This document shows, piece by piece, positions 1,221 to 5,115 of a stretch of DNA of 5,927 nt. Made by a program: the position numbers and the translations under genes. Every line of letters starts with the position of its first letter. Positions within the stretch are counted from its first letter, which is position 1. Under the pieces are notes generated by a model. It did not search any database, was not told the origin of the DNA, and saw only the letters and a list, made by a program, of their open reading frames with translations. The DNA comes from a virus. Its lineage: Duplodnaviria; Heunggongvirae; Uroviricota; Caudoviricetes. The stretch is taken from IMG/VR virus record IMGVR_UViG_2698536458_000009; one strand, written 5' to 3'.

Positions 1221-1979
1221 TTACTTCACAACTCCCGGAAAGCTGACATTTGAACGCCAGCTATCCCAGTTAAACGTCACCCACCGACAACCGTTCATGG
1301 TCATGCGGTCCATAATCCTCTCACCAAGAAGCGTGCTCATTGCGGCATGATTCAGGTTTGTTAACATCCCGACACTGCACAGTGATGCTGTCCGGCGATC
1401 AATTATCTGGTGCAATACCACCTGCTCGTTTTTCGTCTCCCGCTGAATGCCTATTTCATCCAGGACCAGCAAATCAACCCCGCAAAGCTCCTGTAAAAAT
1501 TTTTCACCGGATTTGCCGTTGTCGTAGCTGTCATGCAACACGCTCATGACATCAGACTCGGTGACGATAATCACGCTGCGCCCCTTCGCCATCAGCCGGT
1601 TACCCATCGCCGCTGCAAGGTGATTTTTCCCGGTGCCGGTTTTACCGCTGAACACAAAATTCGTGCACCCGGTCATCAGTTCGTCAGCTATGGATTTGGC
1701 CTGGCTCAGCGCGTATTTTTGCCCGTCGTTCTGCACCTGATAATTCGCAAACGAGCATTTGCTGTGCAGAGGCTGGATGCCCGAACGATTCAGGATTTTT
1801 TCCACCCGCAACTGGCGATTCTGGCGGTTAATCTCCTCGCTGCGTTTTCGTCCTTCAGCAAGTTGCCATTCCCGCCANNNNNNNNNNNNNNNNNNNNNNN
1901 NNNNNNNNNNNNNNNNNNNNNNNNNNNNNNNNNNNNNNNNNNNNNNNNNNNNNNNNNNNNNNNNCCCCGGCTGCCGCAA
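1221..1979 (-). CDS. DnaC-like replicative helicase loader (AAA+ ATPase, lambda P-equivalent / Rac YdaV-like); N-terminus interrupted by an N-run
   Basis: Walker A FSGKTGTGKNHLAAA and Walker B DLLVLDEIG are present. The C-terminal half is close to E. coli DnaC as I recall it (GMLTNLN...LLGERIMDRM...WVTFNWDSWRS versus DnaC TGMLTNSN...LLGERVMDRM...WVIFNWDSYRS). Residues 6-34 are X because of the N-run at 1878..1964 (87 nt, 29 codons if the length is real). The track start at 1979 is TTG, so the true start is uncertain. Confidence 0.85.
   Translation of the reverse strand: MRQPGXXXXXXXXXXXXXXXXXXXXXXXXXXXXXWREWQLAEGRKRSEEINRQNRQLRVEKILNRSGIQPLHSKCSFANYQVQNDGQKYALSQAKSIADELMTGCTNFVFSGKTGTGKNHLAAAMGNRLMAKGRSVIIVTESDVMSVLHDSYDNGKSGEKFLQELCGVDLLVLDEIGIQRETKNEQVVLHQIIDRRTASLCSVGMLTNLNHAAMSTLLGERIMDRMTMNGCRWVTFNWDSWRSNVSFPGVVK
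1878..1964. other. Masked/undetermined bases (87 N) inside the 5' end of the DnaC-like gene
   Basis: Run of N in the supplied sequence; content unknown. Confidence 0.99.
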
Positions 1980-2032
1980 TGTTTTTCATGCCACATCACC
2001 CCCTGAATCCCGGCGGAATTTCGGTATCCGGT

Positions 2033-3082
2033 TCAGAAATATGATTCACACAACGCTGGTTGTTCGTGCCGCTTACCGGGAGCAACNNNNNNNNNNNNNN
2101 NGAGCAACCAGGGGTTTTCAAAATTCCGGTCCGGCCCAAAAAACGTCGTCGCTCGCTGAACAAATTCCGTTCCCGCTTTCCCGGTCGCCGCCAGGTATCT
2201 CGCGTAACGCCTCACACCATCCAGCATGGTCTCTGGTGGCACCCCCTCGCGCAATCTGGCCTTCCAGGCACTGAATGCGGATTTCTTCGGGTTTGCCCCG
2301 GCACGCAACGGGTATTCCCGCCAGACCTGTTCGAACACATCCGGATAATCCACTCGTCCCACAGGCTGCCCGGTGTTTTCCGGGGCTACCCGATCGGCTT
2401 CCCGCTGAATGGCGGAATCGGCTTCAGGCTGCTGCAGTTGGAGTGATTGCTCCGGCCTTGCGGTCATCACCTGCTGCACAGCGCCCGAATCGGCTTTCAG
2501 CGCATACGCTGAATCGGCTTCCGGTGTCGAGCCTGCTGGCTGACCAGGATTGACGGTCTGAACATCCCCTGCCTGGTTCGTGGCGTTTTTTACGCCATGG
2601 ACCATAGTGTTTTGATCTTCTTTATCTGTATCTTTATCTGTATCTGTCGTGACTCGTCGTGACATGTGCGTGACATTTCGTGACGCGCCGTGACAATCGC
2701 CATTTTGTTCCCGCTTTCTTTCCCTCTCTCGCTGCGCCCTCTTGCGCTCTGCAGGAGATTTTGCGGTTTGCGAAATATTGCCGTTGTCCTCTTTAAGCAC
2801 CTGGCGTTTTTCCCATCCAGTGATTAAATCACCATCAAGTACCCGCCCCTGCATCGTCTGCAAAATTGAATCAATTACCTCTTCTGTCACGTCGAGCGCA
2901 CTTGCCAAATCTTCTGTCGTGACATCAATGTGACCTCGCGTGACATTTCGTGACGCGCTCACCAGGAGGTGGATATACACTGCCATCACTGTTGCAATTG
3001 GCTGCCCTGACACCCTGGCAATTGTTCGCCACTTAGGGTCATTTGGCATGTCATGCCATAATCTGAGCCAGGCGTTAGCCAT
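2033..3082 (-). CDS. Replication initiator / replisome organiser (lambda O-like; Rac YdaU-like), about 349 aa, with a low-complexity repeat linker containing the putative origin
   Basis: Position between the cII-like and dnaC-like genes. N-terminal domain (WLRLWHDMPNDPKWRTIARVSGQPIATVMAVYIHLL) and C-terminal domain (VFEQVWREYPLRAGANPKKSAFSAWKARLREGVPPETMLDGVRRYARYLAATGK) resemble phage replication initiators. The track start at 3088 is GTG; the ATG at 3082..3080 has GAGG 5 nt upstream. The C-terminal 17 residues and the stop lie beyond the N-run at 2087..2101, so the 3' end is uncertain. Confidence 0.7.
   Translation of the reverse strand: MANAWLRLWHDMPNDPKWRTIARVSGQPIATVMAVYIHLLVSASRNVTRGHIDVTTEDLASALDVTEEVIDSILQTMQGRVLDGDLITGWEKRQVLKEDNGNISQTAKSPAERKRAQRERERKREQNGDCHGASRNVTHMSRRVTTDTDKDTDKEDQNTMVHGVKNATNQAGDVQTVNPGQPAGSTPEADSAYALKADSGAVQQVMTARPEQSLQLQQPEADSAIQREADRVAPENTGQPVGRVDYPDVFEQVWREYPLRAGANPKKSAFSAWKARLREGVPPETMLDGVRRYARYLAATGKAGTEFVQRATTFFGPDRNFENPWLLXXXXXVAPGKRHEQPALCESYF
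2087..2101. other. Masked/undetermined bases (15 N) near the 3' end of the O-like gene
   Basis: Run of N flanked on both sides by the direct repeat gagcaac (2080..2086 and 2102..2108). Confidence 0.99.
2619..2642. repeat. Tandem 12-bp AT-rich direct repeat (tctttatctgta x2) adjacent to the iteron cluster; candidate DNA-unwinding element
   Basis: tctttatctgta occurs at 2619..2630 and 2631..2642, followed by a partial copy (tctgtcgt). It encodes the DTDKDTDKED segment of the O-like protein. Confidence 0.5.
2648..2694. repeat. Iteron-like cluster A: five CGTGAC motifs phased at 10-11 bp inside the O-like gene (putative origin of replication)
   Basis: CGTGAC at 2648, 2658, 2669, 2679 and 2689. 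The cluster contains the 21-mer gcgtgacatttcgtgacgcgc (2668..2688), which is repeated exactly in cluster B. Confidence 0.6.
2918..2958. repeat. Iteron-like cluster B: four (C/T)GTGAC motifs phased at 10-11 bp; shares an exact 21-bp repeat with cluster A
   Basis: CGTGAC at 2918, 2939 and 2949, and TGTGAC at 2929. The 21-mer gcgtgacatttcgtgacgcgc sits at 2938..2958. An inverted copy GTCACG lies at 2886..2891. Confidence 0.55.
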
Positions 3083-3153
3083 ACTCACCTCTTCTGATAC
3101 CGAATCTTTTTACTCACGAGTTGCCGGGAGCGATTCGATATGGCTATTGTCAG

Positions 3154-3579
3154 TCAATGTACTGCCACAGCATTTCCTGCCGGGCCACCACGGTTCATCT
3201 GATTGAAACCGGCGATTGCCACTGCGACAAAATCATCAGCGTCTCTCACCAGTCGTTCATGCGTCTCCACCAGTTCCCGAAAATAAGCTGAACTGTGGCT
3301 GCGCATTCGAGCCACCAGCGGAGGTGGCATTGCCCTTTCGATCGCAGGTAACAACGCCTGAATTTTTTCAACAGCGTCAGGGGTGTCTTTATCCAGCCAA
3401 CGGAAAATCTTTTGGGTGTTGAGATAAAGCGTGTTGTGCTTGCTGTCGTTATGCAGAACCGGAAACGTCATTCCCAGTTCGAAATAAACCCTGGTTATTT
3501 CAGCTGCCGGAACTTTTTCACCGTCCGGATGCGCCCAGGCTTTCATCGCCATGCGGATGTGTTCATGCTTGATTTTCAT
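3154..3579 (-). CDS. YdaT-family protein (lambda CII-position analogue; annotated in some genomes as a toxin), 141 aa
   Basis: ATG at 3579..3577 overlaps the stop of the upstream cro-like gene (ATGA overlap). N-terminal MKIKHEHI and overall size match my recollection of Rac YdaT; the family call is from memory, not a search. Confidence 0.6.
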   Translation of the reverse strand: MKIKHEHIRMAMKAWAHPDGEKVPAAEITRVYFELGMTFPVLHNDSKHNTLYLNTQKIFRWLDKDTPDAVEKIQALLPAIERAMPPPLVARMRSHSSAYFRELVETHERLVRDADDFVAVAIAGFNQMNRGGPAGNAVAVH

Positions 3580-4470: not shown

Positions 4471-4665
4471 ATGAGTACAGTCCTTTCCCCAATGGTTTCA
4501 GAATTTGAGACAGTTGAGCAAGAAAATAGTTACAACGAATGGCTGCGGGCCAAAGTAGCAGCAAGCCTCGCGGATCCCCGCCCGGCGATTCCGCATGATG
4601 AGGTAATGGCGGAAATGGAACAAATTATTGCCCAAATTGCTGCTGCAACTCACAGAGGTGAATAA
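4471..4665 (+). CDS. paaA: PaaA-like antitoxin (ParE-associated antitoxin), 64 aa
   Basis: ATG at 4471 with AGAGGAG 9 nt upstream. The stop TAA (4663..4665) overlaps the ParE ATG (TAATG). The segment SPMVSEFETVEQENSYNEWLRAKVAASLADPRPAIPHDEV closely matches my recollection of E. coli O157 PaaA2; this was not verified by alignment. Confidence 0.8.
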   Translation: MSTVLSPMVSEFETVEQENSYNEWLRAKVAASLADPRPAIPHDEVMAEMEQIIAQIAAATHRGE

Positions 4666-4955
4666 TGTTACCCGTTTTATGGCTACCATCTGCTCGTGAT
4701 GATTTGCGCCAGATCGTAGCCTACATAGCTAAAGAAAATCCCGCGGCAGCACGCAGAATGAAAATTCGAATTGAAACATCCGTTTTGCCGCTCACAGAGC
4801 ATCCTTACCTGTATCCTCCAAGCGAGCGAGTTCTTGGTCTTCGTGAAATTGTAACTCATCCTAACTACATCATCCTTTACCGAGTAACAGCATCAAGCAT
4901 AGAAGTAGTAAATATTGTGCATTCTCGAAGACAGTATCCAGGCAAAAACAGTTAA
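4665..4955 (+). CDS. parE: ParE/RelE-superfamily toxin (ParE-like), 96 aa
   Basis: The ATG overlaps the antitoxin stop, with AGAGGTG 4 nt upstream. ParE-like sequence features: N-terminal WLPSARDDLRQIVAYIAKENPAAARRM and C-terminal REIV...YIILYRV...IEVVNIVHSRR. Stop TAA at 4953..4955. Confidence 0.85.
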   Translation: MLPVLWLPSARDDLRQIVAYIAKENPAAARRMKIRIETSVLPLTEHPYLYPPSERVLGLREIVTHPNYIILYRVTASSIEVVNIVHSRRQYPGKNS

Positions 4956-5007: not shown

Positions 5008-5115
5008 AAACAATAGCNNNNNNNNNNNNNNNNNNNNNNNNNNNNNNNNNNNNNNNNNNNNNNNNNNNNNNNNNNNNNNNNNNNNNNNNNNNNNNNNNNN
5101 NNNNNNGCTATTGTT
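5008..5115. repeat. Perfect 10-bp inverted repeat (aaacaatagc / gctattgttt) directly abutting both ends of an 89-nt masked segment; unknown palindromic or small element
   Basis: Left arm 5008..5017 and right arm 5107..5116 are exact reverse complements. N-run 5018..5106 lies between them. Confidence 0.4.
5018..5106. other. Masked/undetermined bases (89 N)
   Basis: Run of N in the supplied sequence; content unknown. Confidence 0.99.

Follow-up and report, generated by a model that had tools for sequence, protein, structure and literature searches.

What are two arrays of one short repeat doing inside the coding sequence of a phage replication gene? The question is raised by a window of 5,927 bases (the whole stretch of DNA analysed here, from IMG/VR virus record IMGVR_UViG_2698536458_000009), in which the minus-strand gene for a protein named 'phage replisome organizer', called the initiator gene below, carries two separate clusters of the hexamer GTCACG (CGTGAC on the plus strand). 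The upstream array is referred to as cluster A and the downstream array as cluster B. The region probably serves a lambdoid-style prophage as its origin of vegetative replication, placed within the gene that encodes the initiator, and it appears to be an intragenic origin of the lambda/SPP1 type with an auxiliary array that evolves in concert with the core. A lambda-like origin inside this gene had been proposed in an initial annotation of the DNA; the comparative evidence described below supports that proposal, origin activity itself being predicted from the sequence.

The anatomy of the locus can be read directly. On the plus strand, cluster B consists of CGTGAC at 2648, 2658, 2669, 2679 and 2689, with spacings of 10, 11, 10 and 10 bp, and a motif search thereby confirmed the five phased copies of the initial annotation. 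The unit is about 10 bp long with a 6-bp core, and all of the units are in direct orientation. The same annotation counted four CGTGAC motifs at 2918-2954. The 5-mer GTGAC is indeed found at all four places (2919, 2930, 2940 and 2950), but only three of them are CGTGAC (2918, 2939 and 2949), the site at 2929-2934 being the variant TGTGAC. A single inverted copy, at 2886-2891, had been missed. Counting both orientations, the whole window contains nine copies of CGTGAC, all within 307 bp (2648-2954), compared to an expectation of 2.44 +/- 1.58, and none of 200 dinucleotide shuffles reached nine. The window contains two exact copies of the 21-mer GCGTGACATTTCGTGACGCGC, at 2668 and 2938, and no others, and the minus-strand reading of both copies is ASRNVT followed by H or R; on both counts the initial annotation was correct. 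In the protein, cluster A encodes residues about 43-56 (ASRNVTRGHIDVTT), which form the end of helix 29-45 and the loop (46-55) before the helix-turn-helix, and cluster B encodes residues about 129-146 (CHGASRNVTHMSRRVTT), part of the disordered linker that follows the N-terminal domain. In the direction of transcription, the order of elements is cluster A, the inverted copy, cluster B, an AT-rich block and a palindrome (Table 1).

Table 1. Coordinates of the proposed origin and of the two replication genes in the window, with the origin elements in the order of transcription
Feature	Position	Strand	Description
21-mer, copy 2	2938..2958	-	Exact; in cluster A
Iteron cluster A	2918..2958	-	Four direct GTCAC(G/A), 10-11 bp apart; plus-strand cores at 2949, 2939, 2929 (TGTGAC) and 2918
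Inverted iteron core	2886..2891	+	GTCACG; within D-V-T codons at the start of the putative recognition-helix region
Iteron cluster B	2648..2694	-	Five direct GTCACG; spacings 10, 10, 11 and 10 bp in gene direction; linker-coding region
21-mer, copy 1	2668..2688	-	Exact; two iterons and spacer; in cluster B
AT-rich, purine-rich block	2604..2647	-	ACAGATACAGATAAAGATACAGATAAAGAAGAT... on the coding strand; imperfect hexanucleotide repeats; proposed DNA unwinding element
Palindrome	2574..2604		13-bp stem, TGGTTCGTGGCGT / ACGCCATGGACCA, with 5-nt loop; immediately 3' of the AT-rich block
Initiator gene ('phage replisome organizer', phrog_3729)	1996..3082	-	ATG at 3082-3080, GAGG ribosome-binding site, stop at 1998-1996
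DnaC-like helicase loader gene	1221..1979	-	Immediately downstream of the initiator gene; IstB_IS21, Bac_DnaA; phrog_50; NF009043, 446 bits

The AT-rich block directly follows cluster B, and in this respect the initial annotation, which placed such a block next to the repeats, was right for one cluster only: none lies beside cluster A (2918-2958). The fraction of G+C is 0.29 at 2606-2647 compared to 0.55 over the whole gene, and the coding strand of the block is 71% purine. No 40-mer in any gene of the window is less stable than the segment 2604-2643 (-43.2 kcal/mol, compared to a mean of -55.4 with a standard deviation of 4.0), and window-wide this segment ranks second, after the cro/cI intergenic region. 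A purine-rich AT block of the cAGATAaAGATA type is found 3' of the last cluster B iteron in all 75 of the relatives that carry two clusters, irrespective of iteron class, with a mean G+C of 0.36 versus 0.56 and a purine content of 0.72 versus 0.54. Within the window, positions 2619-2647 are made up of imperfect GATA(A/C)A units that encode D-K/D-T dipeptides and vary in copy number. The window is one 6-bp unit shorter here than Escherichia phage Evi (L001; relatives are designated by such locus numbers where needed), most Escherichia coli matches measure 537 bp for a 531-bp query, and some relatives (L152 and L154) carry 9-13 tandem CAGATA units. The palindrome that follows has a counterpart of the form CCCCCC..GGGGGG at the equivalent place in many relatives. 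Read on the plus strand, antisense to the initiator gene, it resembles the hairpin of an intrinsic terminator, with a 13-bp stem and then TAGTGTTTTG.

If the repeats are functional as DNA, relatives of the gene should retain them beyond what the encoded protein demands, and this comparison, which the initial annotation had suggested, came out positive. Homologues of the N-terminal part of the protein were retrieved by tblastn from Aeromonas phage pAEv1818 and Pseudomonas D3-like phages at ~70% identity, from uncultured phages at ~47% and from Ralstonia phages at ~38%. Both GTCACG arrays lie at the same codon positions in the Aeromonas phage and the D3-like phages, and are thus shared by phages of Escherichia, Aeromonas and Pseudomonas. 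These Aeromonas and Pseudomonas genes also keep the inverted core. The decisive comparison is with more distant relatives, where the repeat has a different sequence but the two clusters have changed jointly: a Manatee Spring phage carries GAACGC repeats and Ralstonia phage Hennie carries GCAACG repeats, each as two arrays at the equivalent places and with 10-bp spacing.

A survey of viral contigs generalizes this pattern. About 240 loci were fetched and anchored on the conserved DPK codons, and the best-phased hexamer was sought in each; the array counts refer to 121 genes whose N-terminal proteins are distinct. Of these, 75 carry two arrays with a common 5-mer. At least seven repeat classes have two-cluster members, namely GTCACG, GAACGC/CGAACG, GCAACG, GTGACG, TAACGC/GTAACG, GAAACG and CCGAAC (membership is less clear for a GGAACG class), and in every two-cluster class the 10-11 bp phasing and the orientation of cluster A are maintained. 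A hexamer picked from the cluster B region alone recurs 2.05 times per locus in the 120-bp cluster A region, compared to 0.19 times for hexamers of other classes; over 107 loci, the totals are 219 in the A region versus 22 in 390 bp of control regions. The repeat sequence changes in both arrays together across lineages. The arrays are also unique within their genomes: in three complete phage genomes of ~40 kb (Evi, pAEv1818 and Hennie), these two are the only phased arrays of the lineage hexamer. Cluster B is present in essentially all relatives with a clear array; with the AT-rich block it makes up the universal core of the proposed origin, cluster A being an accessory array found in about two thirds of relatives. 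The two clusters of the initial annotation are both there, ~260 bp apart, but they are not equivalent.

Evidence that selection acts on the DNA comes from synonymous sites. In 17 genes of the GTCACG class that differ by more than 5% in DNA, the entropy at third positions of conserved codons with at least fourfold degeneracy is 0.18 bit inside the cluster A hexamers (n=7) compared to 1.46 bit outside (n=26; Mann-Whitney U=0, p=3e-5). Third positions in the cluster A spacers vary freely, as at R49 (1.78 bit). Since the synonymous sites of the hexamers are nearly frozen and those of the spacers are free, selection must be acting on the DNA hexamers and not on the peptide. At the inverted core, the third position of V65 is G in 15 of the 17 genes; an inverted 5-mer is found at anchor+150 in the window and in L002, L003 and L163. 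One relative, L237 (IMGVR_UViG_2872371199_000003), carries its upstream GTCACG array at anchor+44 to +64, in a different loop, between helices 2 and 3. The peptide there is LSRNVTVGHV, and the usual cluster A position has no repeats. Because the array is found in another loop, the selected entity would seem to be an upstream array rather than a particular peptide. In several repeat classes (L005, L171, L185, L183 and L188), the 3' end of cluster A is a perfect palindrome of a direct and an inverted core (GCAACGTTGC, GAAACGTTTC and GTGACGTCAC), possibly a site for a dimer; in the window, the inverted core lies at a distance of 28 bp.

The repeated peptide ASRNVT has a simple explanation. Because 10 modulo 3 is 1, successive iterons are read in successive frames, and GTCACG is accordingly read as V-T, as S-R, or within C-H/G-H. 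With a 10-bp period, any two arrays of at least three units must share a frame somewhere, and hence a peptide. The idea that ASRNVT is a selected protein repeat was considered and rejected on the grounds that the hexamers occur in all three frames, that their synonymous sites are constrained and that frame sharing is unavoidable. ASRNVT recurs in the protein as a side effect of the repeat in the DNA.

The identity between the arrays often extends beyond the hexamers. Across the family, the longest exact string shared by clusters A and B has a median length of 11 nt, compared to 8 nt for a control region, and a maximum of 36 nt. The maximum is reached in L121 and L140, each of which has a 36-nt string that is identical between its own two clusters. 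Between the two relatives, three spacer positions differ, and at each of them the change is found in A and B alike, the signature that concerted evolution by sequence exchange would leave. The 21-nt string of the window is a modest instance of the same phenomenon and is likewise taken as a sign of exchange between the arrays; in phage Evi, the longest string is 17 nt, with one G/A difference in cluster B. Repeated gene conversion together with selection would keep the arrays identical, which would explain why the exact 21-mer, and with it ASRNVT, is present twice.

The protein that would bind these repeats is the initiator. It matches PHROG profile phrog_3729, 'replication initiation protein', at an E value of 4.4e-229 (residues 3-330 on positions 1-330 of 356), and homologues at 97-100% identity are named 'phage replisome organizer' at NCBI. 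At default thresholds (Pfam E <= 0.01), the protein has no match in Pfam or NCBIfam. The initial annotation had called the gene 'O-like', which is apt by analogy but not by homology: the lambda O family (PF04492, Phage_rep_O) is matched neither by the whole protein nor, at E <= 1, by any of 40 family members. The sole near match in Pfam is PF09681 (Phage_rep_org_N), which is sub-threshold at 15.7 bits versus a cut-off of 23.3 bits (E 0.016) and aligns residues 5-123 with profile positions 1-119 of 121; Phage_rep_org_N is annotated in two GenBank records of relatives. Sequence searches of the PDB, with the single sequence and with a 40-member profile, returned nothing meaningful. An AlphaFold2 (AF2) model of residues 1-157, built from an alignment of 40 relatives, has a predicted local distance difference test score (pLDDT) of ~87-95 over most of the N-terminal domain, with a dip to 77 at residues 41-50, and values below 50 for residues 131-157. 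It consists of helices at 2-14, 16-25, 29-45, 56-63 and 67-77 and a beta wing at 78-88, with disorder beyond. A Foldseek search of the PDB with this model returned weak matches only, to winged-helix regulators (CRP, MarR, GntR and ArsR; E > 0.4). The model is compatible with a winged-helix-like N-terminal domain.

These data suggest the following scheme for initiation. The winged-helix domain of the initiator would bind the GTCACG repeats head to tail on one face of the helix, one-face binding being proposed because of the 10-11 bp phasing. Cluster B, the proposed core array for initiator binding, would build a nucleoprotein complex which, together with supercoiling and with transcription of the rightward operon through the region, would open the AT-rich block. 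The C-terminal domain of the initiator would then recruit the DnaC-like loader, its presumed partner, together with host DnaB. The initiator would have a further array in cluster A, which lies upstream of B in the coding sequence of the DNA-binding domain. The most likely role of cluster A is one in cis at the core origin, by looping or by cooperative loading that raises initiator occupancy at cluster B, and it may also hinder transcription of the initiator operon once the protein has accumulated. An accessory role in cis is thus favored for cluster A, with autoregulation and negative control as live alternatives.

Several observations weigh against this scheme, or against parts of it. About 25 of the 121 relatives truly lack cluster A, and cluster A is therefore dispensable for the family. 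(Some automatic calls of genes with cluster B only were artefacts, in which the hexanucleotide repeat of the AT-rich block outscored the iterons, as in L086, L120 and L132; these were checked by eye.) The clusters lie 152-302 bp apart, and no helical phase is evident in these distances (circular resultant 0.39, from data that are phylogenetically non-independent), and such variability lends no support to a rigid looped geometry. Some of the identity between clusters A and B could be explained by gene conversion alone. Two relatives, L115 and L119, combine an N-terminal domain of the GAACGC type with GTCAC(G/A)CC repeats in cluster B, so that similarity of the domain does not strictly predict repeat class; these could represent a recent switch of specificity or recombinants. 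Two cyanophage homologues at ~33-35% identity (L246 from Cy-LDV1 and L247 from Microcystis phage Mwe-JY25), both annotated 'replication protein O', have no phased intragenic arrays, and any origin that this protein binds there must be located outside the gene. The winged-helix assignment is itself a weak one, drawn from the AF2 model and the weak Foldseek matches. Finally, no experimental report of binding, unwinding or origin activity in this family was found in a literature search whose coverage excluded most subscription journals.

In one alternative, function is confined to cluster B and the AT-rich block, and cluster A has no role of its own: occasional gene conversion or slippage would have carried sequence from B into a surface loop that tolerates it. 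The relatives that lack cluster A speak for this alternative, as do the decayed remnants in some of their loops: L088 and L115 have cluster B only, with remnants of another repeat class in the cluster A loop, those of L115, like the cluster A remnant of L119, resembling the GAACGC class. The long exact identities between the arrays show that sequence transfer does happen, and the loop encoded by cluster A is modeled with lower confidence and tolerates very different peptides. Nevertheless, a passive copy would decay at synonymous sites, and across the 17 genes the four hexamers of cluster A are nearly frozen at theirs while the spacers vary and other third positions are saturated. The preserved phasing and orientation of cluster A in all two-cluster classes, and the upstream array of L237 at a different codon position, are also difficult to reconcile with passive copying, which is on balance unlikely.

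A mainly regulatory cluster A is an alternative of about the same low likelihood. It could serve as an initiator roadblock or auto-repressor site for the replication operon, or as a negative copy-control array that pairs with cluster B in the manner of handcuffing, as in P1 incA. Second arrays of iteron plasmids do act negatively, and the location of cluster A, inside the transcribed initiator gene and upstream of both cluster B and the loader gene, would suit such a role; with the same repeat in A, the same protein would be expected to bind. Relatives with cluster B only have slightly more cluster B repeats (a mean of 5.6 versus 4.5 5-mer matches, the B-only set including artefacts from the AT-rich block), which is compatible with cluster A sharing or titrating the initiator. 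However, a promoter scan of the region found 2 sites versus 1.6 expected, one of them in cluster B, where GTGACA resembles TTGACA, and thus no promoter-like enrichment. Lytic phage replication is also not obviously served by a limitation of copy number. Sequence does not separate positive from negative action of a second array.

That the repeats are bound by some other protein (a host factor, or a cII/YdaT-like or Cro-like regulator), or serve as a repeat at the protein level, is very improbable: the initiator is no more than the presumed binder, and the mismatch of domain type and cluster B repeat class in L115 and L119 leaves room for another, but the repeat class varies among relatives of this single gene, the arrays always lie within it and are the sole phased ones in three whole genomes of otherwise different gene content, a host-factor site would not diversify into eight or more classes across hosts and within one host, and a protein-level repeat is excluded by the three-frame reading of the hexamers and the constraint on their synonymous sites.

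A bipartite intragenic origin can be compared with several known systems. An origin inside the initiator gene is textbook (lambda, P22 gene 18 and SPP1), further examples being phi80, 82 and the Shiga toxin (Stx) phages, which have six iterons, and second arrays are known in P1, F, R6K, P4 and SPP1. The lambda origin lies in the linker-coding part of gene O and consists of phased initiator sites, an AT-rich strand-asymmetric block and a palindrome, arranged along rightward transcription (PMC7466680, and established knowledge). The locus described here shares with lambda its four or more phased repeats (five in this case) in the part of the initiator gene that codes for the inter-domain linker, and, directly 3' of them, the AT-rich, strand-asymmetric block with a palindrome beyond it. 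A further likeness to lambda is that N-terminal domain and origin behave as a single exchangeable module and that the C-terminal domain is matched to the helicase loader; here the module junction lies at ~2619-2626. The differences are equally clear. There is no detectable homology to lambda O; the repeats are direct 6-bp cores every 10-11 bp, whereas those of lambda are longer (~19 bp), with an internal inverted symmetry, and bind O dimers; the second array in the coding sequence of the DNA-binding domain has no counterpart in lambda; and the loader is DnaC-like, in contrast to lambda P.

Phage SPP1 provides an experimentally proven parallel. Its oriL lies in gene 38, where the replisome organizer G38P binds direct repeats (AB boxes) beside an AT-rich element for unwinding; a fragment of oriL 356 bp in length is enough to support replication in vitro (PMC5737612, PMC6316719). 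The initiator described here likewise appears to be a replisome organizer without an AAA+ domain, with repeats and an AT-rich element inside its own gene, and there is a second set of sites in the genome in both cases; the only near match in Pfam, at its sub-threshold score, is to the SPP1-type family Phage_rep_org_N, which Pfam describes as the N-terminal part of phage replisome organizers. The second set of SPP1, oriR, is intergenic, ~13 kb away and proposed to stall forks, whereas the second array here is in the same gene at a distance of ~260 bp. No distal array like oriR is present in the three complete genomes (Evi, pAEv1818 and Hennie).

Two arrays of one short repeat bound by a single initiator are best known from plasmids and satellites: P1 incC/incA, F incB/incC, R6K and P4 ori/crr. 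In these systems the origin is influenced in cis by the second array: the effect is positive for P4 crr and R6K, and negative, through handcuffing or titration, for P1 incA. Two reviews of this field are listed under PMC4980987 and PMC5397158. The presence of two separate arrays is the point of likeness. The iteron plasmids and P4 differ in having their arrays either between genes or flanking rep, in using initiators of other families and in having repeats that usually measure 17-22 bp; here, one array is superimposed on the coding sequence of the binding domain and evolves in concert with the core array. The origins of the staphylococcal pathogenicity islands (SaPIs) also have short hexamer or octamer iterons in two sets, an AT-rich region and lineage-specific matching of iteron and initiator. 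The SaPI sets flank the AT-rich region and lie downstream of the rep gene, which encodes an initiator of the helicase type, while both arrays here are intragenic and upstream of the AT-rich block.

As far as was found, the origin of this widespread replisome-organizer family is undescribed, as are its short direct repeats at ~10-bp spacing. The chief novelty, with the same limit, is a second array that lies over the coding sequence of the presumed DNA-binding domain and has changed together with the core array across at least seven specificity classes. Literature searches for iterons of this family, GTCACG iterons, the phage D3 origin and Eru replication modules returned no description, most subscription journals being outside their coverage.

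The replication module is very common in Escherichia coli, where it is present in 1817 of 5426 complete genomes, with up to four copies per genome; none of the genomes that carry it has an origin annotated there. In E. coli relatives at 80-90% identity, the alignment ends at ~2619-2626, inside the AT-rich block, and a DnaT-like (PF17948) C-terminal domain is found beyond this point instead. By this comparison, the end of the alignment is a recombination junction at which the loader-interaction domain is swapped. Since the junction lies inside the AT-rich block, the N-terminal domain and both arrays would travel as a single specificity unit, and this modularity supports the proposed scheme for initiation.

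The surrounding genes are those of the early-right operon of a lambdoid-style prophage. Upstream of the initiator gene lie a cII/YdaT-like gene, a cro-like gene and a divergent cI-like repressor gene. The product of the gene between cro-like and initiator genes (3154-3579, minus strand) has conflicting database labels, namely YdaT_toxin in Pfam (E 5e-9) and 'CII-like transcriptional activator' in PHROG 163 (E 3e-40). Directly downstream of the cI-like repressor gene and on the same strand (4471-4955, plus strand) are a PaaA2-type antitoxin (64 amino acids) and a ParE-family toxin (96 amino acids), a toxin-antitoxin module in the immunity region of the prophage. A run of 15 N at 2087-2101, flanked by a duplicated GTTGCTC, breaks the frame of the initiator gene, which the open reading frame program accordingly gives as 2033-3088. 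Alignment with phage Evi identifies the N run and the 7-nt duplication as an insertion and locates the true stop codon (Table 1). Other N runs are found at 1878-1964, where the 5' part of the DnaC-like gene is masked, and at 5018-5106.

A more far-reaching reading of the favored intragenic origin, rather unlikely on present evidence, is that the initiator gene is a self-contained and self-referential specificity cassette. The arrays would bracket the DNA for the recognition helix and wing, one of them being translated into a loop of the binding domain; gene conversion between arrays would permit fast switching of specificity, and cluster A would be a site of capture in cis. If this were true, a lineage that switched origin specificity fast could avoid competing, or being incompatible, with related prophages, of which up to four are found per E. 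coli genome. The N-terminal domain would be finished before the ribosome has left the linker region, and cluster A would load this nascent domain onto the template that encodes it, with cis-preferential initiation and feedback on transcription of the operon as the result.

The module is not confined to E. coli, being found also in phages of Pseudomonas, Aeromonas, Ralstonia and many uncultured hosts. With the origin and its repeat classes defined, sequence alone could be used to predict the replication specificity of prophages that share a host, those of pathogenic E. coli among them, and whether they are compatible. The locus is also an unusually clean natural case of overlapping codes, in which an array with a 10-bp period lies inside the coding sequence of the domain that is presumed to bind it. 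The co-varying repeat classes, at least seven in number, could reveal the recognition code of this initiator family and how the specificities of origin and initiator change together.

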